Of a stretch of 35,207 nucleotides of DNA, positions 63 to 23,953 are shown one piece after another. Made by a program: the position numbers and the translations under genes. The stretch is from an uncultured Candidatus Saccharibacteria bacterium (GTDB lineage Bacteria > Patescibacteriota > Minisyncoccia > UBA6257 > 2-01-FULL-56-20): the NCBI GenBank assembly GCA_964355785.1, contig CAYHEU010000001.1, positions 1-35,207 on the forward strand. Direction: 5' to 3'. Each line of letters opens with the position of its first letter. The first letter of the stretch is position 1. The notes below the pieces were generated by a model. It was not told the origin of the DNA. It searched no databases and saw nothing but the letters and a program-made list of their open reading frames with translations.

Positions 63-133
63 GGGCCTATAGTAAAATGGTATTACGGATCCATGGCATG
101 GATCAGGCCGGGGTTCGATTCCCCGTAGGTCCA
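63..133 (+). tRNA. tRNA-Ala (anticodon GGC)
   Basis: Hand-folded cloverleaf. Acceptor GGGCCTA/TAGGTCC with the G3:U70 Ala identity pair. D stem GTAA/TTAC. Anticodon stem GATCC/GGATC with loop AT-GGC-AT. T arm CGGGG-TTCGATT-CCCCG. Discriminator A, followed by CAC, so no encoded CCA. Confidence 0.85.
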
Positions 134-135
134 CA

Positions 136-162
136 CTTCGCCTTCGTGGAACGAAGGCGAAG
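136..162. other. Perfect 11-bp hairpin directly 3' of tRNA-Ala(GGC)
   Basis: CTTCGCCTTCG-TGGAA-CGAAGGCGAAG. No U-tract follows, so it is not a classical intrinsic terminator. It lies between the tRNA 3' end and the yvcK start. Confidence 0.6.
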
Positions 163-174
163 TATAAACCGCTG

Positions 175-1140
175 ATGAAAAAGAAACCAAAAATTGTCGT
201 GATGGGCGGAGGTACGGGAACCTTCACCGTCCTCACCGGACTCAAAAAATATCCCCTCCAGCTCACCGCAATCGTTTCCATGGCGGACGACGGGGGCTCG
301 ACTGGAATTCTCCGCGATGAATTGGGAGTTCTTCCGCCGGGCGACGTGCGGCAGTGCCTCGTTGCGCTCTCACGCTCCGATCGCCTCATGCGGAATCTTA
401 TGAACTACCGTTTCGCGAATGGAAAACTCGGAGGACACAGCTTCGGGAATCTCCTTCTCTCCGCCCTTGAAAAGATCACCGGAAGTTTCGACTCTGCCGT
501 TGAAAAAGTTTCTGAAGTGCTCCGCCTTCAAGGGAATGTGGTACCCGTAACCTTGAAAAAAATAAAGCTTGTCGCCCACCTTAAGAACGGCGTTGTCGTC
601 ACGGGGCAAAGCGCCGTCCATGAGCACGATTTGAGCGATATGAAAAAGATCGCGCTCGAACCCAAAGCGAAGGCAAATCCAAAAGCGCTCGCCGCGATAC
701 GAGACGCAAACTTTATCGTAATCGGTCCCGGCGATTTCTACTCAAGCCTCGTTCCAAATCTGCTCGTTGCCGCCATACCCCAGGCGATAAGAAAAAGCCG
801 CGCGAAGAAAATCTATATATCTAACCTCATGACCAAAACCGAACATACCGACGGTTTTACCGTCAAAGATTATACGAAAGAGATAGAACACTACCTCGGG
901 GGAAAGATGGATTACGTGATTTATAACAATAAGCGTCCGAGTGCCCGGCTCCTCCACCGCTACGCGCGCGAAGGCGAACGATTCGTGGAATTAAACGCAA
1001 AACTTCCCAAGAAAAAATTCTTCGGCGCAGATCTTGTGAGTAAAAAATTTCCGAAACAACATAGAGGCGACCTTATGAAACGAAATCTCATCCGCCACAA
1101 TCCCGAAGCGCTTGCCAGGCTCATCATGAAGCTTCTCTAA
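175..1140 (+). CDS. yvcK: YvcK/CofD-like (UPF0052, gluconeogenesis-factor family) protein
   Basis: 321-aa ORF. N-terminal KIVVMGGGTGTFTVLTGLK, then SMADDGGSTGILRDELGVLPPGDVRQCLVAL and IVIGPGDFYSSLVPNL, all typical of the YvcK/CofD family. Confidence 0.85.
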   Translation: MKKKPKIVVMGGGTGTFTVLTGLKKYPLQLTAIVSMADDGGSTGILRDELGVLPPGDVRQCLVALSRSDRLMRNLMNYRFANGKLGGHSFGNLLLSALEKITGSFDSAVEKVSEVLRLQGNVVPVTLKKIKLVAHLKNGVVVTGQSAVHEHDLSDMKKIALEPKAKANPKALAAIRDANFIVIGPGDFYSSLVPNLLVAAIPQAIRKSRAKKIYISNLMTKTEHTDGFTVKDYTKEIEHYLGGKMDYVIYNNKRPSARLLHRYAREGERFVELNAKLPKKKFFGADLVSKKFPKQHRGDLMKRNLIRHNPEALARLIMKLL

Positions 1141-1155
1141 AGATACCTCCTGCCC

Positions 1156-1184
1156 TTGAAAAAATAGCCGCTTTTAAGTACAAT
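1156..1184 (+). promoter_or_regulatory. Sigma-70-like promoter (TTGAAA-17 nt-TACAAT)
   Basis: -35 TTGAAA (1156-1161), a 17-nt spacer, then -10 TACAAT (1179-1184). It lies about 50 nt upstream of the GGGAGG RBS and GTG start at 1234. Confidence 0.55.
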
Positions 1185-1233
1185 AAATTTAGTTTCCTTT
1201 TACAAACAACTTCTTTCTCTAGGGAGGTGTGCC

Positions 1234-1590
1234 GTGTGCCACATCGGGAATAGAGAAGGCCCGCTCCACGAAGCAATCATCGAACGGCTTTCGTACCTCT
1301 ACGATTTCGCATGCGGAGAGCAGGACGTTCTCTGCGACATCGGGTTCGAGGAACTGGGAACGCGCCTGGGAAATGTTGAGGGTGTGCGCGTCGCTCCCGA
1401 CGGTTTTCCATACCTCATCTTCGGGCCCACCACGGACCACGAGGCGTTCGTTTACTATTTCGACGGGACGGATCCTCTACGCACGCTCCACGGGGATATC
1501 ATGGCCGCAGATGGCCTGTGTCGTAAAGACAGGGTCGCCCTGTATCGCGAAGACAAGCCGGGTCACTGGGCAAAAATCAAAACGAGCTGA
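1234..1590 (+). CDS. Hypothetical protein (118 aa), first gene of a GC-rich two-gene cassette
   Basis: GTG start 6 nt after GGGAGG (1222-1227). No recognisable motifs. The region is noticeably more GC-rich than its neighbours. It is tightly followed by the GNAT gene. Confidence 0.6.
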   Translation: MCHIGNREGPLHEAIIERLSYLYDFACGEQDVLCDIGFEELGTRLGNVEGVRVAPDGFPYLIFGPTTDHEAFVYYFDGTDPLRTLHGDIMAADGLCRKDRVALYREDKPGHWAKIKTS

Positions 1591-1604
1591 AAAGGAGATT
1601 CCTG

Positions 1605-2144
1605 GTGGAAACGAACAGTATTGTCGTGCGCCGCGCTTCCGAAGGAGACATTCCCGCGATGACTGAGGTGAACATGGAATGTTTCCACGGCGACCGAGGA
1701 AGCCCCGTGAGCGCTACCAAATGGCTCATGTGCCGGGTCAAATCCTTTCCTCTTTACCAGCTTTTCGTCATCGAAGTAGGTGGCAAGGTCGCTGGCTACG
1801 TGGGATGGGAAATTCATGGCGGATTTCTCCGGACCGAGCCCGTGGTGGAGTTAGAGCAAATCGGCATCCTTGAACAGGAGCGGAACCTCAAACTCGGCTC
1901 TCAACTCCAAGAGGAATCTCTGCGGGCGATAACTGACTGGGTGAAGGAGAACAACCCACGGATCGAGAGCTCCGTGAGCTTTGTCGTGTGGGTGTACGCA
2001 CACAACCTCCGTGCCATCAACATCTACCTCAAGGTCTTCACGGATGGCATCGTAGGGATGCGAACCCAGTACGGAAATCGTTCGGAAGTTATGCTCCGGC
2101 ACCGTGTCCCTCTCGTGGTCGGCGTACCCAAGGAAGAGCGGTAA
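1605..2144 (+). CDS. GNAT-family N-acetyltransferase
   Basis: 179-aa ORF with GTG start after AAGGAG. GNAT-like core: VIEVGGKVAGYVGWEI, then LEQIGILEQERNLKLGSQLQEESL (acetyl-CoA motif A-like). Confidence 0.8.
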   Translation: METNSIVVRRASEGDIPAMTEVNMECFHGDRGSPVSATKWLMCRVKSFPLYQLFVIEVGGKVAGYVGWEIHGGFLRTEPVVELEQIGILEQERNLKLGSQLQEESLRAITDWVKENNPRIESSVSFVVWVYAHNLRAINIYLKVFTDGIVGMRTQYGNRSEVMLRHRVPLVVGVPKEER

Positions 2145-2152
2145 CAATCTAT

Positions 2153-2194
2153 GCGCCGTGTGGGTCTCCCGGGATTCAACGGCGCTTTTTCTTT
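2153..2194 (+). terminator. Rho-independent terminator of the hypothetical-GNAT cassette
   Basis: Stem GCGCCGT (2153-2159) / ACGGCGC (2179-2185) followed by TTTTTCTTT. Starts 9 nt after the GNAT stop codon. Confidence 0.6.
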
Positions 2195-2236
2195 ACGAGG
2201 AAAAATTCTTCGAGTAAAATAACAAGAGTGCAACGA

Positions 2237-2302
2237 GGGCCTATAGCTTAGTGGCACCCGCCCGACCGAACACATCGGTCGTTCGGGCGGGGAGCATCCG
2301 GT
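2237..2302 (+). pseudogene. Truncated 5' half of tRNA-Ala(UGC), positions 1 to about 32, interrupted by a 35-nt hairpin in the D-loop
   Basis: 2237-2256 (GGGCCTATAGCTTAGTGGCA) and 2292-2302 (GAGCATCCGGT) are identical to nt 1-31 of the intact tRNA at 2540. Identity stops in the anticodon loop. No anticodon 3' strand, T arm or acceptor 3' strand follows. Confidence 0.75.
2257..2291 (+). repeat. Structured palindromic mini-element, family 1 (CCCGCCCGAC...GTCGTTCGGGCGGG)
   Basis: CCCGCCCGAC-CGAACACATCG-GTCGTTCGGGCGGG. 9-bp outer stem, 4-bp inner stem CCGA/TCGG, and a 3' TCGT bulge. It shares its 10-nt and 14-nt termini with the copy at 13240..13275. Confidence 0.8.
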
Positions 2303-2305
2303 AGT

Positions 2306-2554
2306 ATGTACACTGTATATATTCTTCAAGACAGCCGAGGAAAATTGTATAAAGGAATGACGAATAATCTGAAAAGAAGGTTGAAAGAACACCGAAGTGG
2401 ACACACGAAGACAACTTCACGTATGATCAATATCTCTGTGGTATATACCGAAACATTCAAGGAGTTAGGTTCGGCAAGAAAACGAGAGCTGTACCTTAAA
2501 TCCGCCGCCGGCAGAAGATTCTTGAAGAAGATACTGCAAGGGCCTATAGCTTAG
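2306..2554 (+). CDS. GIY-YIG nuclease-superfamily protein (short UPF0213-like, 82 aa)
   Basis: N-terminus YTVYILQDSRGKLYKGMTNNLKRRLKEH matches the GIY-(10-11)-YxG...R...E pattern. The ATG lies 4 nt after the tRNA-fragment homology ends. The last 5 codons and the stop (GPIA*) are encoded by the first 15 nt of the intact tRNA-Ala. Confidence 0.8.
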   Translation: MYTVYILQDSRGKLYKGMTNNLKRRLKEHRSGHTKTTSRMINISVVYTETFKELGSARKRELYLKSAAGRRFLKKILQGPIA

Positions 2555-2610
2555 TGGCAGAGCATCCGGTTTGCATCCGGAAGATGGGGGTTCGATTCCC
2601 CCTAGGTCCA
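2540..2610 (+). tRNA. tRNA-Ala (anticodon UGC)
   Basis: Acceptor GGGCCTA/TAGGTCC with G3:U70. D arm GCTT-AGTGGCA-GAGC. Anticodon stem TCCGG/CCGGA with loop TT-TGC-AT. T arm GGGGG-TTCGATT-CCCCC. Discriminator A, no encoded CCA. Confidence 0.9.
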
Positions 2611-2617
2611 CGAAAAA

Positions 2618-3241
2618 ATGCAAAAACGCGTTTTCATAATTCACGGTTGGGATAGCTCCCCTTACGACGCATGGATCCCATGGCTTTGGACGGAGCTCGA
2701 GAACCATGACTTCAAGGTGGAGGTTCCTCTAATGCCGAACGCACAGGCGCCGGAGATAGAAATCTGGGTGAGCCACTTGAAGAATCTCGTGGGCGATCCG
2801 GACGAAGAAACTTATTTCGTGGGACACAGCGTCGGATGCCAAGCCATTATTCGCTATCTCGAATCACTCGAGGAAGGAACGAAAGTCGGCGGCGCAGTTT
2901 TTGTGGGAGGGTGGTTCACCTTGAGCGGTGATGCAATGAAAACCGAGGAGGAAAAGGAAGTTGCCCTCCCGTGGCTCGAGACGCCAATTGATTTCGAGAA
3001 AGCGAAAAGAGTCACGACGAATTTCGCCGCAGTGCTTTCAGATAATGACCCCTATGTACCCCTCAAGGACAATAAAGAAATTTTTCAAGAAAAGTTCTCT
3101 GCCCGAGTGATCATCGAGCACAACAAGGGACATTTCAGCCGAGAAGACAACATTACCGAGCTTCCGATCACGCTCGATCTGCTTCTTGATATGGTATATC
3201 AAAAAGATAAATTAGGCGTGGATGAGGAAACTTCTTCTTAG
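2618..3241 (+). CDS. Alpha/beta serine hydrolase (YdeN/RBBP9-like Ser_hydrolase family)
   Basis: 207 aa. FIIHGWDSS, nucleophile elbow VGHSVGC, LSDNDPYVP and HNKGHF form a Ser-Asp-His arrangement typical of this family. The ATG is only 7 nt after the tRNA-Ala 3' end. Confidence 0.8.
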   Translation: MQKRVFIIHGWDSSPYDAWIPWLWTELENHDFKVEVPLMPNAQAPEIEIWVSHLKNLVGDPDEETYFVGHSVGCQAIIRYLESLEEGTKVGGAVFVGGWFTLSGDAMKTEEEKEVALPWLETPIDFEKAKRVTTNFAAVLSDNDPYVPLKDNKEIFQEKFSARVIIEHNKGHFSREDNITELPITLDLLLDMVYQKDKLGVDEETSS

Positions 3242-3264
3242 AAAACTTGGGGTATTCGGTTCAT

Positions 3265-6200
3265 CTACTGACTGAAGTTTTTCATGAGCTCATTCATCTT
3301 CCCCCTCGTCTTCGGCCCCACATAGCCGAAGGCGGAGTCATCCTCGGTCGTGATACCGTGCTTCAACTGGAAGCGCTGAACGGCGCGTTTCGTGAGCGGC
3401 CCGAAATAGCCGGTCACGAGGGCTTCGGGATAGATCTCCGATCCTTGTGAGGAGAGGAACTCTTGGAGAATTTTTACTTCGTCATCCTTGAGGCCAGGGT
3501 AAAGGGGTTTCGTGAAGGTGTGCTGTGGAACGCTCCCGGTTGGGGCAGACATTCCCCCGCCCCCTAATAAGGCATTGAGCTTCGTCTGAAGCACGGCGAG
3601 CTGTGTGAGGAACTCCTGGATGCGCGCCTGGATTCCCGAGGAAGAAGAAGGCGATGGGAGAAAAACGGGAGGGCTTGAGGTGGACGTCGTGGTCGAAACA
3701 ATTGGCGCGGGCGGTGGCGAATAGCCGGAGTAGTTTCCGGAGATGGTGACGGCAGGATTCGTTACACCTCCGCTTGAGGGGCAGGCGGTGGTGCCTTGGG
3801 TGATCGCGGTGGCATCGGAACTCTGCACGCCATCGCCATTTCTCACCCGTGCTTTCCAGGTATAGCTGGTATCGCAGGTAAGGCCGGTCGCGGTCCAGGT
3901 GTTCGTCTGTATCCAGTCGGAGTTCGGGTTGCCATCGGTGCTACTTGCGTAGAAGTAATATCCCGAGGAACTTGCTGTGGGGTTGTTGATCGCGGTGACG
4001 GAGAGCCCCACGCTTGTGCCAGCGACGGAGGTGGTGGCGAAGCCGAGGGGGGAAGTTGCGACAGCTTTGGTGTATCTCAAGAACGGAGAGGAGAGCGCTG
4101 AAACGTTCGTGGATGATGCGGCATCACGCACCTGCGCTTGGAAAGAATATTGGGTGTTCGCGGTGAGACCGGTCTTACTCCACAGATTTGACGACTGAAA
4201 TCCAGCACTACTCGACGTTATGCCCTCGCGGAAGTAATACGGGGTGGAATTGAGTCCGGAGCTTGTGTCGGTTGCATTATTGATTCTCACCTGAATCGAG
4301 ATATAAGTGAAAAGAGTGGTCGTTGAAAGCGAAAACCCGCTCGGGGCTGTCGTATCGATCTTGAATGCCCGCGTCGTGTAGCCGTCCGAGACCACATTGT
4401 CAACATCTAAGGCGATCTCGTGAACATAATAGGTGCCATCTCCCGAGAGCGAGCTCGAGGCAATCGTGAAGGCGCCATCGACATCCGTAGTGCCGCTTGC
4501 GTTCACCGTTGAGGTTGACGCGGTGGAACTTTGATTGAAAAGGTATTTGTAAGTTGTTGAGGCATCGTCCGTAAATCCTAAACCGACATCAATCGTCGTC
4601 GTGCTGTACCACGTGGTGCTCGTGGAGTGCGATGCGCTTGTGATAACTGGATTACTCGGAATCACGTTTTCGTACGCGCCGACATCATAGTACGTTATCG
4701 TACCGCTCCCGCTATTAGTAATACCCAGTGTGTCATACCGGCTACGGCCAAGATAATCAGTTGAAGTCGCTCCAAAATTACTCGTGCCCGCGTCAATAAT
4801 TGTAGAACTTGTGAAGAGACGGAAGTCGAAGGTGGAAGAAGAACGGTAGAGGGGGTTTACGAAATAACTATTGGTGCTGGTGCCAGCGCTGAGATTCGCG
4901 CTATTTGCCCAGAAATCGTTGAAGGCAAGCGATGATGACGCGGCGTCCGATGCACCTCCGGAGAAATTCACGGCAGTGTCATTCTGCGAAAAGATGGAAT
5001 TGTACACGGTCGTATAATTCGGACTGACGGTTATTATGCCCGTGCCGTTCCCGTGGAATACCGAGTTCCGGACCGTGGTGGACGCGCGGTTGTCGATCGC
5101 GTACTGGCCGCTGTTATTGTAAAACAAGCTGTTATCAAGCGTGAGCTGCGCATTGGAAGCTGTCTGAACTCCGGTCGTGCCGCTATGGTGGATCTTTAAT
5201 TTATTCGCGTTCACCACCGAACCGTTTGTTGCTTGCAAAGCCTTATTTGAAGTGGTCCCCGACGCTTGATAATTGGAAATCGTTACGGTGCTGCTGTTTA
5301 CGCTGATTCCTACGCCGGCGAGTCCGGAGACATAGATATTATTAAGAGTGACATTAGATGCGGTGTTAGTAATCTCTATTCCGGTGCCGGCAGTGTTTTG
5401 TATGGTAGCGGTCGCAACGGTCGCGTTAGCGCCGGCAATAGTGATGCCCACACCGGTCCCTGTTGTTGTTACATTAATCGCATTACTCCCATTTCCTCCT
5501 AAATACAGGCCGGTTGCACTCCCGCCGTTGAAGATGATATCCCTTGCCGTAAAATTATTCGCGGCATTAAGGATTCCATAGCTCGTGCCTACAACAGTGC
5601 CATTTTTGACGGTGGTGCTCGCTGTCGTACCGGCCTCAAGACGTACGCCGATATCAACAGAACTCGGATTCATGGTAAGTCCCGTAAGATCCACCGTGGA
5701 GGTTCCGGAGCCGTTCAGATAGATACCATAAAGTCCGGAAGAAATGGTGGTGCTTGTAAAATTAATATTCCACACCGCGCCGCCTGATAGCGAGATTGGC
5801 GATCGGCTAGCCCCGGAGTTAAAGGTCACATTGTTCAGATTGATCCTGCTGGCATTCCCTCCTTGTAAAAGAAGGACGCTGTTTATGAAATTCGTGCTCG
5901 AAACATTGAGTATCACCTCCCCCGCCGTATCTTGCGATAAAATAAGACCGCTTGAACTGCTTGAGATGGTGGAATTGGTGAGCGAACTCGTTCTTGTTAT
6001 GCCGTCGTTCGCGTAGGTGCTAAACCCAAGACAGTGGCCGTTGCCCACGCACGTCACATTGTTCGCGTCAGTTTGCGCGGTGGTTCCATGGTCCATGGCG
6101 CCGCCAGGATTGTTGGCGAGATATGCCCCTTCCACGCTCCCAGACGACGTATCATGGAATGAAATGCCGTCATCGCCGTTGTCGGTGCTTGTGACATTCG

Positions 6201-9468: not shown

Positions 9469-9501
9469 AACAGCGAGTAGAAAGTAGGCGGTAGAAAGTA
9501 G
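9466..9501 (+). repeat. Heptad-periodic TAG array (left arm, GTAG heptamers)
   Basis: Plus-strand TAG at 9466 (the htrA stop), 9478, 9485, 9492 and 9499. The last four are spaced exactly 7 nt apart, so all three frames are closed. The arm is imperfectly complementary to the right arm at 9873..9903. Confidence 0.8.
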
Positions 9502-9514
9502 AGCTTTCAAGAAA

Positions 9515-9872: not shown

Positions 9873-9903
9873 TTACTCTCTACTCTCTACTTGCTACTCT
9901 CTA
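9873..9903 (-). repeat. Heptad-periodic TAG array (right arm, read on the minus strand)
   Basis: Plus-strand CTA at 9880, 9887, 9894 and 9901, which reads as minus-strand TAG every 7 nt. The last one is the stop codon of the 9901..10809 gene. CTACTCT heptamers. Confidence 0.8.
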
Positions 9904-10809
9904 GTATGTGTAGAGATCCACAAGGAGGCCGTTCTGATCGAGGAGAAGCACTCTGTCGTGCCGAAAATCAAGGAACTTGCTGTTTGGGCCGGTGTTCCCC
10001 GTCCACGCACGAACTTCTCTCCCAAGAAAATCCTCGTCGTTCTGATATTTTTCAAAACACCCGCGGTAGTTGATTTTATTCAAATACGCACGGCATTCGT
10101 AGTCGTCGAGCGCAATCGGCGGGTTCGATTCCGGCTCTGCGCAGTAACCGAGGGAATAAATATAGTCCTGACACTCACCGCGAAACCTCGAGATTCCATA
10201 CGAATCGACGATCGAAGGACAACCTCCGTAAAGCGGCGGATTAAAGTCGTAGTACTTCTCGAGATAGCCGAGGCACTTGTTAAGCCGCAAGTTGCGGCCG
10301 ATGGGACTTACCGTTGAGTAAATATTTAAGGAATCGCCGCTCCGCAGATAAATGTTGTTTTCCGGAGCATTCCCGAGCGGATCATAAACCTGAACGGCGC
10401 GATAAGGAACATTTTGAAAGCTTTTGTTCCCTTGGAGGCGCCAGCCCTTGAGCGGAATCGCGCGTTCGCCGTCGAACCATGCCGAAAGGACGATTTGGCT
10501 GTAATCGTCCGGAGAACCCGGGAATGCGGTCGCAATTCTCACCTTGTGGAAATAGGGTGAGAGCTGGTCGAGCGTAAATCCTTGGGGAATTTCTCCGGGG
10601 TCAATACTCGGAAGATTCCCTTGCGGCGGGGGCTCTTCCTGTGGTGGTTCGTTTTGCGGCGGAGGAATATTTTCCCCTCCCTCGTGAACCGCTCCTTTGG
10701 TCGACGTTGAATTTTCTCCTAGAGGACCCTGGAGCCGCCCCGGCTGATTTACATAAATCGCGGCTCCGATAAGAACGGCGAAAATTACAATTCCAAAAAT
10801 CCTCCCCAT
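9901..10809 (-). CDS. Membrane-anchored secreted protein, possible lamin-tail-like (LTD) domain plus Cys-rich C-terminal region
   Basis: 302 aa. GGAGG RBS. N-terminal TM helix IFGIVIFAVLIGAAIYV, a Pro-rich linker, then …IVLSAWFDGERAIPLKGWRLQGNK…IYLRSGDSLNIYS (LTD-like pattern), followed by 6 Cys. Confidence 0.75.
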   Translation of the reverse strand: MGRIFGIVIFAVLIGAAIYVNQPGRLQGPLGENSTSTKGAVHEGGENIPPPQNEPPQEEPPPQGNLPSIDPGEIPQGFTLDQLSPYFHKVRIATAFPGSPDDYSQIVLSAWFDGERAIPLKGWRLQGNKSFQNVPYRAVQVYDPLGNAPENNIYLRSGDSLNIYSTVSPIGRNLRLNKCLGYLEKYYDFNPPLYGGCPSIVDSYGISRFRGECQDYIYSLGYCAEPESNPPIALDDYECRAYLNKINYRGCFEKYQNDEDFLGREVRAWTGNTGPNSKFLDFRHDRVLLLDQNGLLVDLYTY

Positions 10810-10818
10810 ACCTCCTAA

Positions 10819-13800
10819 TTAAACCACGATATTTATCAAACGTTGAGGAACGTAGATCACGCGCTTCGGCTTTTTCCCCGCGAGAAACGCCGTTATTTTC
10901 TCTCTCCGAAGTGCGGTCTCTTTTGCATCAGATTCGGAAATATCCACATTGACCTCAACGCTGTCCCGAACCTTACCATTCACCTGAATTACCAACATAA
11001 ACTTTTCATCTTGAATAAGGCGTTCATCGTACGAAGGCCACGGCGAAATGTGGATTGAGTTCTTGTTTCCCAAAACATTTCTCCAAATCTCCTCGGTAAT
11101 GTGGGGCGCAAACGGGGCGAGGAGCTTGAGAAAATCTGAATAAGATTTTTTATCAGTCCCCTTTTCAAGTTCGGATAAAAGAATCATAAGCGAGCTTATT
11201 GCCGTATTGTAATGAAGATTTTCTATATCCTCGGTGATTTTCTTAATTGTTTTATGTACCAATCGCTCAATTTTCTTATTCGTGGCATTCGAGTTCATTT
11301 GGAGATTTGCATTGTGTTCTAATTTCCAAACCCGTTCCAAAAATCTCACCGGTCCCAAAATCCCCGCATCGCGGAAATCGCCGCCTTCCTCAAAGGGACC
11401 GATAAACATAAGATGCATACGGAGCGCATCTGCGCCAAATTTTTTGATGAACTCATCGGGGTTCACGATATTTCCCCGCGACTTTGAAATCTTTTTTCCT
11501 TCACGGATCAAAAGACCGTGCGCGCGAAATTTTTTTGCAGGTTCGTCTCCGCCCGAGGCGGATCCGCCTTTGGCGGAAAAAGGTAAAATCCCTAAGTCAC
11601 AAAGCGCTTTCCACATAAACCGGACGTAGAGAAGGTGGAGTACCGCGTGCTCCGCGCCGCCGATATACATATGAACCGGCAACCATTTTTTTATCCTGAG
11701 CTTGTCGAAGGGCGAATTCTTATCTTTTGGATCAAGATAGCGAAGATAGTACCACGCAGAATCAAGGAATGTGTCCGAAACGTCGGTTTCGCGAACCCCT
11801 TTTGCGCCACAGTGAGGACACTTCACCTCATAGAACGACCTTACCGTCGCAAGCGGCGATTTTCCCATGCCTTTCGGACGGAAATTTTTTACTTTCGGAA
11901 GTTCCACCGGCAAATCATTTTCTGGAACCGCATGCCAACCGGGCATATCATCCCTCTCGCCTCTTTTCTCCTTGGCACACGCCCCGCAGTAGATCATTGG
12001 AATCGGCGGCCCCCAATAGCGCTGGCGCGAGATCAACCAATCACGGAGGCGGTACTGGACCTTTTTTACTCCTCCGACATCACGCATCACCTTATCGCTA
12101 TCCACGAGCGGCGCATCGCTCGCGGGAAGCCCGAACATTTCCGCGAACTCCGCATCCCGCTCATCGTGCGCGGGGACGGCCATAATGGCGCCCGTGCCGT
12201 AACCCATAACCACATAATCAGCAACCCAGATGGGAATTTCTCGTTTTGTTCCGGGATTCATTGCCTCCACTCCTTTAAGCTCCACGCCTGTTTTCTTTCT
12301 TCCCTCGGCAATCCGCTCGTTTTCGGATTTCTTCTTTGCTCTTCTCACATATGCCTCAACTTCCCGAAGATTTAAGATCTGAGATTTTCCGCCCGAGGCG
12401 GATCCGCCTTTGGCGGAAAGATTTGAGATCAGTGGATGCTCTGGCGCAAGCACCACGTAGGTTGCGCCGTAGAGCGTGTCGGGACGCGTGGTGAAAACTT
12501 TTATTGTGGGCAACAGAGTATTTAATATAAGAGGTTCTTGCGCTCCTGTAAGATGCTCTTTATGTGCAAATCCTTCAATAAATTTAGTTTGTAATTTATC
12601 GCGCAAGTATTCTAAGTATGGACCTCGCTTATCTTTCTCCAGGGAATCGGAAATTATGGTTACAGAATTGCTCAATTTTTTCAGCAATTCGTAGTCATAT
12701 TCAAATGAAAAAGTTTTCCAAAATGGCCTCTCTTCGCCGGTACGAAAACGAGGCTCTACGGCTGGGGCAACAAGAACAAGCCCAGCGATGGGACGATTAA
12801 TCTTTTGCAATACTTTCATGGCTACTACTCCTCCTAAGCTATGACCAACGATAATAGTGTGCTCATTTATTCGGCAATTTTTAACAACATAATCAACTTG
12901 TTCCGATTCTACGGGATGATCAGTATTAGGCATTTGAGGTGCTTGGACACCAAAACCCTGTTGCTCCAGTTTCTCTTTTAACCACGGAATGAAGTTCTTA
13001 TTTACATGGCCAGTATAACCGTGGAGGATCAAAAAATTGGTATTTTTATTCAATACAACCGGAAAATCTATCTCCGTGCCTTCCGACTTCCCTATCCAGT
13101 TCCGCTGGGCAACTTTGATTCTCTCCGACCAATCAAGACCGTCCAGGTCTTTAATAAGGCGCTCGGCGTACTTGGTAATCCTGAAAAACCACTGTTCAAG
13201 CTCTTTTTTCTCCACGACAGAATCGCAGCGCTCGCATTTCCCGCCCGAACGACTGACGTCGCTCAGTCGGGCGGGCCCGCCAACAACCTGCTCGTCGGCT
13301 AAAACCGTGAGGCACGAGGGGCACCAGTTTACCGCCTGCTTTCTGCGGTAAGCCAGTCCGTTCTTGAACATTTGGGTGAAGATCCATTGCGTCCATTTGT
13401 AATACTTTGGATCAAAGGTTTCCAGATGCTCATTCCAAGCAAAACCATTGCCAATTTCACGGAGTTGGCGATAGAAGTTTTTCTCTGAAATTTTCGCTTG
13501 CTCGGCAGGATGCTTCTTTGTTTTCAATGCATAGTTTTCGGAGTGGATTCCAAAGCCATCAAGCCCGATCGGCTCGAAAACGTCATTCCCCTGCATCCGT
13601 TTCACGCGCCCATAGATATCGGATCCAACGAACGCATACATATTCCCGACATGGAGGCCCTCTGCCGATGGATATGGGAACATCATTAGGTTATAAAAAG
13701 GCGCAGCCTTTTTACCATGAGCCCGTCGAAGGGCAGAATGGTCACCTTGAGCGAAGGAGGGCTCATAAACCCCCTCTTTTAACCACTTGCTTTGCCAGTA

Positions 13801-13830
13801 TTTTTCTATCCTCTTAAAATCGTATTTCAT
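10819..13830 (-). CDS. leuS: Leucyl-tRNA synthetase with several in-frame insertions, including an alpha/beta-hydrolase domain
   Basis: Class I motifs: PYPSAEGLHVGN (HIGH-like) and KISKSRGN (KMSKS). Also NWCPSC…CERC Zn motif, NWIGKSEG, VFTTRPDT, YGTGAIMAVPAHDERD (CP1 editing domain) and RLRDWLISRQRYWG. Start placed at M18 (MKYDFKRIEKYWQ), which matches the conserved LeuRS N-terminus. The ORF itself extends up to 13881. Confidence 0.95.
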   Translation of the reverse strand: MKYDFKRIEKYWQSKWLKEGVYEPSFAQGDHSALRRAHGKKAAPFYNLMMFPYPSAEGLHVGNMYAFVGSDIYGRVKRMQGNDVFEPIGLDGFGIHSENYALKTKKHPAEQAKISEKNFYRQLREIGNGFAWNEHLETFDPKYYKWTQWIFTQMFKNGLAYRRKQAVNWCPSCLTVLADEQVVGGPARLSDVSRSGGKCERCDSVVEKKELEQWFFRITKYAERLIKDLDGLDWSERIKVAQRNWIGKSEGTEIDFPVVLNKNTNFLILHGYTGHVNKNFIPWLKEKLEQQGFGVQAPQMPNTDHPVESEQVDYVVKNCRINEHTIIVGHSLGGVVAMKVLQKINRPIAGLVLVAPAVEPRFRTGEERPFWKTFSFEYDYELLKKLSNSVTIISDSLEKDKRGPYLEYLRDKLQTKFIEGFAHKEHLTGAQEPLILNTLLPTIKVFTTRPDTLYGATYVVLAPEHPLISNLSAKGGSASGGKSQILNLREVEAYVRRAKKKSENERIAEGRKKTGVELKGVEAMNPGTKREIPIWVADYVVMGYGTGAIMAVPAHDERDAEFAEMFGLPASDAPLVDSDKVMRDVGGVKKVQYRLRDWLISRQRYWGPPIPMIYCGACAKEKRGERDDMPGWHAVPENDLPVELPKVKNFRPKGMGKSPLATVRSFYEVKCPHCGAKGVRETDVSDTFLDSAWYYLRYLDPKDKNSPFDKLRIKKWLPVHMYIGGAEHAVLHLLYVRFMWKALCDLGILPFSAKGGSASGGDEPAKKFRAHGLLIREGKKISKSRGNIVNPDEFIKKFGADALRMHLMFIGPFEEGGDFRDAGILGPVRFLERVWKLEHNANLQMNSNATNKKIERLVHKTIKKITEDIENLHYNTAISSLMILLSELEKGTDKKSYSDFLKLLAPFAPHITEEIWRNVLGNKNSIHISPWPSYDERLIQDEKFMLVIQVNGKVRDSVEVNVDISESDAKETALRREKITAFLAGKKPKRVIYVPQRLINIVV
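11548..11577 (-). repeat. Double-hairpin mini-element, family 2 (copy 2), in frame in leuS
   Basis: The sense strand TCCGCC-AAA-GGCGGA-TCCGCC-TCG-GGCGGA is exactly 10 codons (SAKGGSASGG) in phase. It is identical to 12388..12417. Confidence 0.85.
12388..12417 (-). repeat. Double-hairpin mini-element, family 2 (copy 1), in frame in leuS
   Basis: Same 30-mer (32 nt identical when flanks are included), encoding SAKGGSASGG at residues 489-498 of the ORF. Confidence 0.85.
13240..13275 (-). repeat. Structured palindromic mini-element, family 1, in frame in the leuS Zn-finger loop
   Basis: The sense strand CCCGCCCGAC-TGAGCGACGTCA-GTCGTTCGGGCGGG is exactly 12 codons (PARLSDVSRSGG, ORF codons 203-214). 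It sits between VVGG and KCERC. Same termini and same fold as 2257..2291. Confidence 0.85.
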
Positions 13831-13922
13831 TTTTTCTGCCTGCCCGCCGTAGTCCCGCAAAACGGAACGAAGGAGGGCCAATATTTTTCTATTTTTTGGA
13901 AGTTATAACTCTTCATTCAATA

Positions 13923-22162: not shown

Positions 22163-22234
22163 TAGAGAGTAGCTTGTAGCCAGTAGTGAGTAGGAAGAAC
22201 TTTTGATTTTCTACTTACTACTCTCTACTTTCTA
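22163..22234. repeat. Cargo-less inverted pair of heptad TAG arrays
   Basis: Left arm has plus-strand TAG at 22163, 22170, 22177, 22184 and 22191. Right arm has plus-strand CTA (minus-strand TAG) at 22211, 22218, 22225 and 22232, the last being the thyX-like stop. About 17-nt spacer. The reverse complement of the right arm, GCGAGTAGAAAGTAG, is identical to 15 nt of the left arm at about 9473-9487. Confidence 0.85.
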
Positions 22235-23953
22235 CTCGCTTTTGTTTGGAGAACTTTCCCCTACCCCCTGCCTCTTTTTCGCAAGTTTCTCGACAATATC
22301 CTTTTCTTTCTCGGAGATTTTCTCTTCTGTGCCGCGCCGCGCAATTGCGTAGTCGTTCATGTCCACAAGCATGAAACTCGCAAGAAGCGGAAATTTTTCT
22401 TTCACCAACCGATACTTTTCCTGCTCAATAAACCGGTAGTCGGGATGTCCTTGGGAAATGGTGCGAAGCTCTGTTTCCCAAAAAAGCTGACGGAAGTTCT
22501 TCCATTGATAAAATCGGAGGCGATACGCGAGCGGTACGACGTACTGCGCAAGAACCGGATCTTTCTCTTCGATCTTTCTGAAAAATGCGCTCGCTCCTTC
22601 CAAAGCTTCCCGGAATTGGCCCTCAAGGCCCGCCTCGGGGATTTCCGGCGGGACATCATAGCCATGGTGAGTCGAGAAGTATTCGCGATCCTGCGTCATC
22701 ATCCGGTGGCGGTGGAGATCTCGATAACTCCCGATATTCATCGTAATCTCAAAACGCAGGTATGAATTCTCAAACGCACGTCCGACTTTGTGCCAGCGCG
22801 CCGAACGATTCAAAAGATAGAAGCTTATTATTTCTTTTCGCTCCGATCCGGAAAGTTCTCTTGCGATCTGAAGCACTCTTTCCCATGTTGCGTGGGTGGC
22901 GGGAAAAATTATTCCCGCAATAATTTTTTCCTCCGCACGCGGGTCGCACTCCACGAGTTTCACCTCGGGCTTCGTCCCTCCTTTTTCGAGCAATTTCCCC
23001 TCTTCCGCATGCCGGGAGCTTTGGAGAAAACGGTGAACGGCCGCGCTCCGTTCGGCAAGATACCGCTGATATCCCTCCGATTTCTCGTCCCCAAGCCGCA
23101 AAAGAAGCGAAGGAATCTCGTTATCCAGTTCTCGCTTCACGGCGGAGGAAATCCACCGGAGTTCTCCCAAGGAATGCTTTGCGGTGCGATTAATCAAATA
23201 TTCGAGGGCCTGCGCATTCCCCCGGAACGCAACCTGCCCCAAGGTCGCCATAGGAAGAAGCCCCCGAAGGGTGTCGAACGCTTTTTTCTCCAAGACGGAT
23301 TCTTTTTCCTCGTAATTCTCCTTAAGCCACGCGAGAAGCCGCGGCAGGAGCTCCACGTAGGTATCAAAAAGATGGTCTAGCGTTTTCCGATACTCAGGAA
23401 GGATTCCGAGGCGTTCAAGATCCGGCTTCGGAATATAGTAGAGATAGCGATCCCTAATTTTCTTCCCAAAATTTACGTAGCGCGTGGATTTCTCGATCGG
23501 TTCGAGCCCAATCCGCTGATCCTCAACGAATTTCATCGCAACCTGCGAAATCCCCCAGAAGAGCACGTGCGTGCCCGTCATCTGGGCAATAGAGTCGTCG
23601 CCGTACTGGGAGAGCCACTTTGCATAAAATTCCTGCGCGCGCTGATTATTCAAGATATTTTTAAATCCCCGTTCGCGGAGAAAACTCACCGTCTCCTCGA
23701 GTTCTTTCGCGAGCGCTTTGTTTTCGCCCTCAAGGATCGGATAGAAATATTCCTTGAGAAGCACGCGGAGGAGCGAGTGCGGCGCACGGCTCGCGCGCGA
23801 ACAGAGCGCCCCTACGATCTCCGGCGGCAGGTTCCGAAGCACGTGCACGAGGCCGTCCACGTTTGTTGCGAACGGCTCCAAAAGGAATTTATCTTTTTCC
23901 GACCATTCTTCCCCGGGAAAATCGGGCGCGTACGCGTCTCTACTCTCCGGCAT
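22232..23953 (-). CDS. Long ThyX-like (FAD-dependent thymidylate synthase family) protein
   Basis: 573 aa. …GALCSRASRAP… and …YRDLHRHRMMTQ… resemble ThyX signatures. It is about twice the canonical length, and the RHR-x7-S serine is not at the canonical spacing. Confidence 0.6.
   Translation of the reverse strand: MPESRDAYAPDFPGEEWSEKDKFLLEPFATNVDGLVHVLRNLPPEIVGALCSRASRAPHSLLRVLLKEYFYPILEGENKALAKELEETVSFLRERGFKNILNNQRAQEFYAKWLSQYGDDSIAQMTGTHVLFWGISQVAMKFVEDQRIGLEPIEKSTRYVNFGKKIRDRYLYYIPKPDLERLGILPEYRKTLDHLFDTYVELLPRLLAWLKENYEEKESVLEKKAFDTLRGLLPMATLGQVAFRGNAQALEYLINRTAKHSLGELRWISSAVKRELDNEIPSLLLRLGDEKSEGYQRYLAERSAAVHRFLQSSRHAEEGKLLEKGGTKPEVKLVECDPRAEEKIIAGIIFPATHATWERVLQIARELSGSERKEIISFYLLNRSARWHKVGRAFENSYLRFEITMNIGSYRDLHRHRMMTQDREYFSTHHGYDVPPEIPEAGLEGQFREALEGASAFFRKIEEKDPVLAQYVVPLAYRLRFYQWKNFRQLFWETELRTISQGHPDYRFIEQEKYRLVKEKFPLLASFMLVDMNDYAIARRGTEEKISEKEKDIVEKLAKKRQGVGESSPNKSE

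Follow-up and report, generated by a model that had tools for sequence, protein, structure and literature searches.

The stretch of DNA considered here, called the window below, comprises 35,207 nucleotides (nt) of an uncultured Candidatus Saccharibacteria bacterium (GenBank assembly GCA_964355785.1, contig CAYHEU010000001.1). At positions 2237-2611 a complete alanine transfer RNA (tRNA) gene is preceded, on the same strand, by a short open reading frame (ORF) for a GIY-YIG nuclease and by a dead copy of the 5' part of the same tRNA, which is itself interrupted by a GC-rich palindrome. On balance, this is probably one copy of a recurrent, horizontally moving, homing-like cassette that occupies tRNA genes in bacteria of the candidate phyla radiation (CPR), the Patescibacteria.

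The intact gene, tRNA-Ala(UGC) on the forward strand, was placed at 2540-2611 by ARAGORN and at 2540-2610 by Rfam (RF00005, 72.3 bits). The original prediction, made from the letters of this DNA alone, held that nt 1-31 of this tRNA are repeated upstream in two pieces, and sequence comparison and shuffling bore out all of its coordinates. The first part of the dead fragment (2237-2256, forward strand) matches tRNA nt 1-20 exactly and the second (2292-2302, forward strand) matches nt 21-31; identity breaks at A 2303 versus T 2571, the edge of the anticodon loop. The 20-mer GGGCCTATAGCTTAGTGGCA has exactly two copies in the window (2237-2256 and 2540-2559), and a second copy arose in none of 100 dinucleotide-preserving shuffles, with 3 mismatches tolerated. 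GAGCATCCGGT, corresponding to nt 21-31, stands at 2292-2302 and 2560-2570. The palindrome, which had also been correctly located in the D-loop of the half-copy, occupies 2257-2291, splitting the dead fragment precisely after tRNA nt 20 (nt 21 follows it), with a one-G ambiguity at its boundary. It is 35 nt long, GC-rich and bulged (CCCGCCCG...CGGGCGGG), and folds as DNA with -15 kcal/mol (z -4.4), a stability equalled in 0 of 200 shuffles.

The ORF (2306-2554, forward strand) begins with an ATG at 2306, three nt past the second part of the fossil, and encodes 82 amino acids ending in ...QGPIA. Its TAG stop codon (2552-2554) is formed by nt 13-15 of the intact tRNA, and its last five codons (GPIA plus stop; 15 nt) are tRNA nt 1-15, as had been proposed. 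The ORF is present once in the window, with a GC content of 40% versus 50% for the window as a whole. L081, a contig from Hainich groundwater that was recorded separately (ENA ERZ1292624, 3536 nt), corresponds to window positions 79-3614 at 99.9% identity and is identical over 2100-2700, i.e. across the entire structure, so mis-assembly does not explain the locus. In this public contig the gene caller left the ORF uncalled, and the window protein is for that reason absent from the protein index.

A consensus scan found three promoter-like sites in the region, compared with 0.6 expected. The first (TTTACG-17 nt-TAAAAT, forward strand, 2192-2220) lies 17 nt 5' of the fossil and may have been the tRNA promoter originally, from which fossil, ORF and tRNA would now be transcribed together; its position fits such co-transcription. 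A second promoter-like site lies within the ORF (TGGACA-18 nt-TATGAT, forward strand, 2398-2427, 10/12 matches in the same consensus scan) and could allow transcription of the tRNA independently of the ORF start. The palindrome was rejected as a terminator: it is not followed by a T-run, and the terminator scan found none on that strand. The 3' arm of the hairpin together with GAGC yields GGGGAG, a candidate ribosome-binding site at the junction. Across the related loci described below, GGAG or GAGG occurs 4-13 nt 5' of the ATG in 21 of 77 cases versus 8% at random positions, and a role of the hairpin junction as a general ribosome-binding site was set aside, the motif being enriched yet not general. 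A mechanically called 87-residue ORF (1988-2251, forward strand) likewise ends in ...RGPIA, since it enters the dead tRNA copy in the frame in which the nuclease ORF enters the live one; it overlaps the 3' end of a GNAT gene and is almost certainly not a gene.

The encoded protein matches the Pfam GIY-YIG family (PF01541) over residues 1-69 with an E-value of 7e-12 (45.9 bits, cut-off 22.6). Residues Y5, Y15, R24/R25, H29 and E61 are invariant across 31 family members, and catalytic roles can be assigned to them by homology. The AlphaFold2 model (mean predicted local distance difference test score 90.5) places strands at 2-8, 14-19 and 44-51 and helices at 22-31, 54-65 and 67-77, the three-stranded sheet with flanking helices (beta-beta-alpha-beta-alpha-alpha) of the GIY-YIG superfamily. 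With this model, Foldseek returned the UPF0213 proteins 1ZG2 and 1YWL as best matches, then the Slx1 nuclease domain and the UvrC N-terminal domain. A profile of the 31 members matched only UPF0213 proteins among Protein Data Bank sequences (1YWL, 2.2e-8; 1ZG2, 8.2e-7). Sequence and model thus place the protein in a UPF0213/Slx1-like branch with a single predicted nuclease domain, in agreement with the earlier view of a UPF0213-type protein without an obvious DNA-binding domain.

Classical GIY-YIG homing enzymes cleave their target site-specifically by means of a separate DNA-binding domain. The window protein scored 17.9 bits against the NCBIfam 'group I intron endonuclease' model, far under the cut-off of 56, and its 82 residues leave no room for such a domain; for these reasons it is not filed here as a canonical homing endonuclease, even though the cassette would work like a homing ORF. 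A known anti-phage defence system was rejected, as the PADLOC models gave no family at E ≤ 0.01 for the protein. A phage origin was likewise rejected: viral contigs hold distant GIY-YIG relatives only, with identities of up to 62% in short partial matches and of no more than 45% once a match exceeds about 30 residues.

A word-indexed search retrieved 402 homologues, nearly all of 75-85 residues, the named ones almost all from Patescibacteria lineages, and an exhaustive search resolved the UPF0213 GIY-YIG family into 1,623 clusters at 50% identity (E ≤ 1e-10). Most members are annotated generically as 'GIY-YIG nuclease family protein' or 'putative endonuclease'. Many database homologues are given as 100-118 residues long, with the conserved domain beginning at residue 20-40; these genes have probably been called from a start in front of the fossil, with fossil and hairpin read as coding sequence. 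Ratios of nonsynonymous to synonymous substitution rates (dN/dS) of 0.05-0.12 in 8 closely related ORF pairs indicate purifying selection, and hence that the ORF is a maintained coding gene. In 76 of 77 loci the AT content of the ORF exceeds that of its flanks, on average by 9 points, and the protein is rich in Lys, Arg and Asn. Low GC is weak as proof of foreign origin, since ORF GC follows host GC (r 0.71).

The original prediction suggested looking at other GIY-YIG copies for adjacency to tRNA fragments, and the association is pervasive. Eighty genome loci encoding relatives of the ORF were fetched and scanned for tRNAs, giving 78 recognisable ORFs in Patescibacteria genome contigs; a same-strand tRNA lies directly 3' of the ORF in 77 of these 78. 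The 77 ORF-tRNA loci analysed further consist of 76 from genome contigs plus the window. About 14 isoacceptors are attached to this one ORF family, chiefly tRNA-Ala(UGC) (22 loci), Thr(UGU) (14), Asp (10), Ala(GGC) (7), Phe (6) and Ile(UAU) (4), and more rarely Thr(GGU), Val, Lys, His and Arg. In 64 of the 77 loci the ORF runs into the tRNA before reaching its stop codon. In 50 it is read from tRNA nt 8-10, the near-universal U8-A9-G10 (TAG), so that an ORF ending there finds a stop codon in almost any tRNA; in 10 it is at nt 13-15, as in the window. In nine further loci the ORF stops at most 20 nt 5' of the tRNA.

To look for upstream fossils, the 220 nt preceding each ORF were aligned, with gaps allowed, to the tRNA of that locus; with z ≥ 5 against shuffles taken as significant, fossils were found in 57 of the 77 loci. 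Forty-eight of them are clean: they start at tRNA nt 1-3, end at nt 20-43, and are followed by the ATG after 0-28 nt. Their average identity to the live tRNA is 98%, with 28 of the 48 at 100%. Most end in the anticodon stem-loop, right before the ATG, and a second class ends in the D-loop; the earlier picture of the anticodon loop as a single, intron-like junction therefore does not hold. About 8 of 73 loci, mostly ones lacking an upstream fossil, carry downstream of their live tRNA a remnant of its 3' part (nt ~10-76). One uninterrupted tRNA is retained at each locus. There is thus little room for doubt that a conserved, recurrent cassette exists in CPR bacteria, namely a GIY-YIG-only gene of ~79-82 residues and UPF0213/Slx1 type, fused to the 5' end of a functional tRNA that supplies its stop codon.

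Horizontal movement of the cassette is likely, and several kinds of evidence point to it. Similarity between loci can be confined to the module: L001 and L002 are 85% identical over exactly the interval from fossil start to tRNA end, and in L020 and L027 the ORF and tRNA share 90.6% nt identity compared with 48-65% amino acid identity for the proteins of the left flank. The pairs L043/L062 and L006/L018 are likewise similar only within the module. Cassettes are also stacked. In L126 the series begins with an intact tRNA-Lys and continues with the 3'-terminal ~90 nt of an ORF (nhmmer 3e-13), a dead tRNA-Arg fragment (nt 1-38) with hairpin, a full ORF and a live tRNA-Arg, the ORF remnant being fused to the tRNA-Arg fragment exactly as in live modules. 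In L247 (Zambryskibacteria, Rifle aquifer; 2575-3301) a fossil comes first, then ORF1, a hairpin-bearing tRNA-Lys fossil, ORF2 and the live tRNA-Lys(UUU), with a palindrome-bearing dead tRNA-Lys 5' fragment before each ORF; the structure is at least 99.7% identical across eight strain contigs (L246 and L248-L253 are alike). The two ORFs of L247 are only 42% identical, which argues for successive arrivals of different lineages rather than local duplication.

Nesting is seen in L020. The 5' and 3' fossils of one split resident tRNA-Thr (acceptor GCCAGCG...CGCTGGC) there enclose a second fossil, an ORF and a different, complete tRNA-Thr (GCCACCC...GGGTGGC); L062 is similar. Together, the stacked and nested cassettes indicate repeated invasion of tRNA genes. 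In L004, L056, L020 and L062 no pairing is possible between the fossil and the 3' acceptor strand belonging to the live tRNA, and the latter is consequently not a hybrid. In L004, L056 and L020 either the ORF brought a whole tRNA along, or the fossil was carried over from an earlier host. The same isoacceptors are also occupied in some genomes and free in others, a weak indication of occupied and unoccupied alleles: the 62 nt that precede the tRNA-Ala(GGC) gene of the window (63-134) contain nothing ORF-like, and an 86%-identical gene in L016 is occupied. The ORF tree shows partial clustering by tRNA identity along with clear mixing, the 75 aligned residues being too few for firm inference.

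How the cassette might move can be pictured as follows, and we regard this particular cleavage-and-repair route as about evenly balanced between right and wrong. The nuclease would cut a tRNA gene of matching kind resident in the recipient, at some point between the D- and anticodon loops, and repair would copy from a cassette-bearing donor, with the tRNA-derived sequence on both sides of the ORF serving as portable homology arms. Of the two broken ends, the left would pair, in the donor, with the tRNA-derived sequence 5' of the ORF and the right with the live tRNA. Arms made of tRNA sequence would dispense with homology in the flanks, making moves between distant genomes possible, and the shared D-arm would allow occasional moves between isoacceptors. 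The ORF would enter together with replacement tRNA sequence, either a 5' part or a whole gene, so keeping an essential tRNA functional without splicing. The displaced piece of the resident gene would stay behind as a fossil, in the window nt 1-31 at 2237-2302. Because the live tRNA would be regenerated, re-invasion could follow, and fossils and old ORFs would be expected to stack upstream. The unit, about 270-375 nt, looks like a selfish element with its own replacement tRNA. Cutting of the transcript by RNase P would remove the stop codon and might thereby limit nuclease synthesis, which is pure conjecture.

The original prediction had a nuclease ORF with a replacement tRNA 5' half entering the tRNA gene and leaving a fossil. 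The recurrence of the architecture and the stacking in L126 and L247 agree with this; the restriction to a 5' half does not extend to the several loci where the incoming unit probably carried a whole tRNA.

A number of observations weigh against a mobile, homing-like cassette. Fossil ends scatter over nt 20-43 and define no single cleavage site. The protein is a bare catalytic domain, too short to include a DNA-binding domain, and its nearest structural relatives are structure-specific or repair nucleases rather than homing enzymes. A target that is regenerated implies a risk of self-cleavage, and no protection mechanism is evident. Some pairs of loci (L007/L013 and L043/L069) are plainly syntenic, the ORF of L007/L013 being as conserved as its flanks. 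An unoccupied orthologous tRNA-Ala site, which the original prediction proposed to look for, was not found for the window. The collections contain no close relative of its genome: relatives of the flanking hydrolase reach 61% identity at most, the window's own strain excepted, and three homologues of it lie in non-syntenic contexts without a tRNA. The strain sets carrying P0043 and P0027 showed no presence/absence polymorphism, with cassette structures identical or at least 99.7% identical in all strains compared. In the window, fossil and live tRNA are identical over 31 nt, so which copy was resident, which incoming, and the direction of events are not readable there; the assignment given above is an inferred one. 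Purifying selection over the long term (dS 0.4-1.0) is not what a purely selfish endonuclease usually shows, and it would also fit a host function, for which the partial tracking of host GC and the Slx1-like fold also leave room.

A fossil with a hairpin can, moreover, stand beside a live tRNA without any ORF, as in L161, L116, L169, L174 and L154, where the spacers are too short for one; the tRNA-Ala(UGC) of L161 is 94% identical to that of the window. A search of the spacers of such ORF-less pairs with nhmmer gave no ORF remnant at E ≤ 10. The original prediction named half-tRNAs lacking a GIY-YIG gene in related genomes as evidence that would speak against it, and these pairs do weaken a strict dependence on the ORF, while being compatible with loss of the ORF or, by assumption, with decayed or non-autonomous derivatives of the cassette. 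Among ORF-less tRNAs in the ORF-bearing and other loci covered, a fossil with a hairpin was seen only in second-level events inside cassettes or in loci selected for the hairpin. Tandem arrays are present in L121 (2150-2520) and L180 (3000-3300), where two or three dead 5' tRNA-Thr halves precede a live tRNA with no nuclease ORF. Each half has ~16 nt of upstream flank and a different D-loop palindrome, and is cut off in the anticodon loop; the arrays could be a record of repeated events or non-autonomous derivatives.

Several of the same facts would suit a quite different explanation, in which the ORF is a resident, host-useful gene, e.g. for a repair nuclease, that uses tRNA promoters, the fossils arise from local duplication and deletion provoked by palindromes, and there is no homing. 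Strong purifying selection, the synteny of L007/L013 with an ORF conserved like its flanks, the correlation of ORF and host GC, strains without polymorphism and the Slx1-like fold all fit such a gene. We consider it unlikely nonetheless. The stacked ORFs of L247 are too divergent to be local duplicates, a cassette with a different complete tRNA allele is nested in a split resident tRNA in L020, and similarity of the module far exceeds that of the flanks in L020/L027, L001/L002 and L043/L062. A single ORF family on about 14 isoacceptors, with a mixed phylogeny, is also hard to reconcile with a resident gene.

The palindrome needs to be considered in its own right. The original prediction mentioned it in the D-loop of the half-copy, where it is not incidental: at least one palindrome insert is present in 47 of the 48 clean fossils, and the palindromes belong to a general CPR family that also occurs in protein genes. 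The inserts in fossils are 26-49 nt long, with a few larger, nested or composite ones of up to 165 nt, and interrupt the tRNA sequence precisely, with no target duplication. Thirty-six follow nt 20-22 (the D-loop, as in the window), nine follow nt 9 and ten follow nt 12-14; further inserts lie in the anticodon loop. All are bulged palindromes (CCCGCCCG, a 4-nt bulge, an inner stem-loop, and CGGGCGGG) of a few sub-types, and they occur in both orientations, the 85%-identical modules of L001 and L002 carrying exact reverse complements. Just 5' of the ORFs they are concentrated more than 100-fold, with 58 of 81 hairpin-like sites in ~300 kb of loci falling within the 170 nt before an ORF start.

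The palindrome is abundant on CPR-type metagenome contigs, a scan with one 17-mer arm giving at least 120 loci (L082-L201). Among the copies listed, about 11 hold another palindrome in their loop or bulge, 10 of 122 lie within 400 nt of a family ORF by tblastn (with a nucleotide profile, about 13 of the loci hold one), and about 20 are in tRNA-like sequence, the rest being in unrelated contexts. Their modal length is 36 nt, and it is a multiple of three in 61 of the 85 measurable copies. Many of these metagenome copies stand in short tandem-repeat-like or coding contexts. Palindromes were also observed in the T-loop of tRNA-like remnants (gggttc, hairpin, gattccc) in L200 (~3600-3660, minus strand) and L156 (~2100), so the D-loop and anticodon loop are not the sole insertion sites.

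A second copy of the same family lies in the window at 13240-13275, in opposite orientation to that at 2257-2291. It is 36 nt long and is inserted in frame in the leucyl-tRNA synthetase (LeuRS) gene between ...EQVVGG and KCERC..., adding PARLSDVSRSGG; the arms of the two copies differ by one compensatory pair (ACTGA/TCAGT vs ACCGA/TCGGT). This in-frame copy marks the hairpin as an independent element. Judging by these sequence contexts, we conclude that the palindrome is an independent short mobile element with a strong liking for unpaired loops of folded DNA, of which tRNA-like DNA offers several, and that insertion there is tolerated only by dead copies. It would thus insert into unpaired loops and accumulate in dead tRNA copies. 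Its presence in nearly all fossils, even identical ones, may be due to very fast colonisation, to co-transfer with the cassette, or to survivorship, as precise excision would be favoured wherever the ORF stood between direct repeats of 30 nt without interruption. By breaking up the repeat the palindrome may stabilise the cassette.

Repetitive extragenic palindromic sequences and bacterial interspersed mosaic elements (REP/BIME), as well as the Rickettsia palindromic elements, are short palindromic mobile repeats. Like them, the palindrome described here is 30-40 nt long, GC-rich, imperfect and present in many copies, and, like the Rickettsia elements, it can lie in frame inside protein genes. 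It differs from all of these in preferring the loops of tRNA-like DNA and of other copies of itself. No REP-associated tyrosine transposase (RAYT) type of enzyme was seen nearby, and within our sample the element is CPR-specific.

The hairpin might itself be the centre of the system: the GIY-YIG protein would mobilise the 36-nt palindromes in trans, as RAYT does REP, insertion into D-loops and anticodon loops would kill tRNA copies, and the tRNA duplications would be by-products or rescues. The enrichment just 5' of ORFs is what one would expect of this, as is the hairpin in 47/48 fossils when 28/48 are still 100% identical to the live tRNA. Insertion at unpaired positions (D-, anticodon and T-loops, and the loops or bulges of other hairpins) would moreover suit a structure-specific, Slx1-like nuclease. 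Against this, only ~10-13 of the 122 metagenomic copies are near a family ORF, most being in unrelated genes or spacers, and the fusion of ORF and live tRNA with its internal stop codon is left unexplained, so that we hold this explanation to be improbable.

It is also conceivable, if doubtful, that CPR UPF0213 proteins are structure-specific endonucleases that cut unpaired loops, both in tRNA cloverleaves and in hairpins, and thereby drive tRNA-homing cassettes as well as non-autonomous 36-nt palindromes. A stop codon in U8-A9-G10 would then make the ORF portable between tRNAs, and nuclease synthesis would be tied to transcripts not yet cut by RNase P, since that cut removes the stop codon. 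If this were true, it would be the first biological role for the UPF0213 family.

Processing at the RNA level has been weighed too, i.e. that the upstream half and the downstream sequence form an interrupted or split tRNA, whose transcript would lose the ORF and hairpin through intron excision or trans-splicing. The break does adjoin the anticodon loop, and the hairpin is inserted cleanly, with no target duplication. The downstream tRNA, however, is complete by itself, which already contradicts this idea; within the window no Rfam intron family reached its gathering threshold, each locus retains one uninterrupted tRNA beside the interrupted copies, and the hairpin occurs in both orientations and inside protein genes. 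A group I intron, an archaeal bulge-helix-bulge intron and a split tRNA were rejected on the first two of these grounds, and the whole idea is very improbable. Chance similarity or an assembly artefact, for which nothing speaks beyond the metagenomic origin of the sequence, is already refuted by the shuffles, by the identical independent contig and by recurrence in dozens of unrelated assemblies, and its probability is close to nil.

With a homing-like cassette as the preferred explanation, the nearest counterparts are found in fungal mitochondria, where mobile endonuclease ORFs (mORFs) carry a replacement gene end in atp6 of Allomyces macrogynus and in atp6, atp9, cox2 and nad3 of Glomus (Paquin et al. 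1994, as cited in PMC3630166). As summarised there, a replacement C-terminal segment is brought in and the native one is left as a remnant (PMC3630166). By analogy, these mORFs would be the closest mechanism to the cassette: in both, an intron-less endonuclease ORF enters an essential gene, a substitute segment, which can be foreign, keeps the gene functional, and the native segment is left adjacent. In contrast to the mORFs, the cassette targets a bacterial tRNA gene instead of a protein gene and has mirrored polarity, the 5' part being replaced and the ORF lying upstream. Its ORF overlaps the RNA gene and borrows its stop codon, its enzyme is far smaller (a bare 82-residue UPF0213 domain), and its fossils are colonised by palindromes. 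Endonuclease activity has been shown for fungal mORFs, whereas the cassette nuclease is known here from its sequence and predicted structure.

Phage T4 SegB, a free-standing GIY-YIG homing endonuclease in a tRNA gene cluster (PMC2330249), had been named as a precedent. The parallel holds for the position of a GIY-YIG gene among tRNA genes and for spread of a gene-conversion type. It fails for the enzyme, because the closest relatives of the window protein are UPF0213 and Slx1 and not homing enzymes of the SegB/I-TevI type; SegB is a larger, I-TevI-like phage protein encoded between genes, without tRNA duplication or overlap. Bacterial UPF0213/YhbQ-type proteins and the nuclease domain of eukaryotic Slx1 (PDB 1YWL, 1ZG2, 6SEH and 4XM5, the top four Foldseek matches) share the fold and conserved catalytic residues of the window protein. 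Unlike the cassette nuclease they are not known to be tRNA-linked or mobile, and Slx1, again unlike it, needs Slx4 and has an extra RING domain.

Integrase-driven islands and prophages also enter tRNA genes and restore the gene with a tRNA end of their own (Williams 2002, cited in PMC9897764). They resemble the cassette in targeting tRNA genes, carrying substitute tRNA sequence and leaving a partial tRNA repeat. They differ in duplicating the 3' part, in being kilobases long and in using a tyrosine or serine integrase; the cassette has about 270-375 nt, duplicates mostly the 5' part and has a GIY-YIG nuclease as its only gene. An integrase-mediated element was accordingly rejected for the window, the sole gene of the unit being the GIY-YIG ORF and the repeat being the tRNA 5' part. 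In CPR rRNA genes, non-intron insertions encoding GIY-YIG proteins have been described as sparse and not obviously spread by homing (PMC11270868). They share with the cassette the bacterial group, the nuclease superfamily, a location in stable RNA genes and the lack of a recognisable intron; tRNA linkage, fossils and palindromes are not described there (PMC11270868).

In the full-text literature outside subscription journals we found no description of tRNA-linked GIY-YIG cassettes or of the CPR palindromes. The cassette is apparently an undescribed, intron-less mobile endonuclease ORF that carries replacement gene sequence and is widespread in CPR bacteria. Known routes into essential RNA genes are self-splicing and the use of an integrase that restores the 3' end of the gene. 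If the interpretation is correct, a nuclease with a spare tRNA copy would be a third, very compact route, and the UPF0213 GIY-YIG family would gain a concrete, testable role. The cassette accounts for tRNA pseudo-fragments and gene-calling errors in CPR genomes and offers a means of tracing horizontal exchange between ultra-small bacteria. Tool developers could take an interest in a minimal nuclease that recognises the structure of tRNA genes and in a loop-inserting palindrome, and the palindromic element, given its resemblance to the in-frame Rickettsia palindromic elements, merits study of its own.

Some features elsewhere in the window were also observed. The LeuRS gene (10819-13881, minus strand) that hosts the palindrome copy contains a different, 43-nt GC-rich palindromic repeat (TCCGCCCGAGGCGGATCCGCCTTTGGCGGA...) at 11548-11590 and 12388-12430. 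The two copies are 88% identical and each encodes SAKGGSASGG in the LeuRS frame. LeuRS residues 283-396 form an inserted alpha/beta-hydrolase segment (Pfam Ser_hydrolase, E 4e-9) before a shortened editing domain, and this insert shares its Pfam family with the free-standing hydrolase gene (2618-3241) adjoining the tRNA. A class I aminoacyl-tRNA synthetase containing a His_Phos_1 insert adjoins a homologous hydrolase in L233. Directly 3' of tRNA-Ala(GGC) (63-134) there is a perfect inverted repeat (136-165; cttcgccttcg...cgaaggcgaag), which may be a terminator or a processing hairpin. A short repeat of the TACTCTCTAC type has direct and inverted copies at 9469-9502, 9874-9914 and 22163-22252, 12 kb apart.

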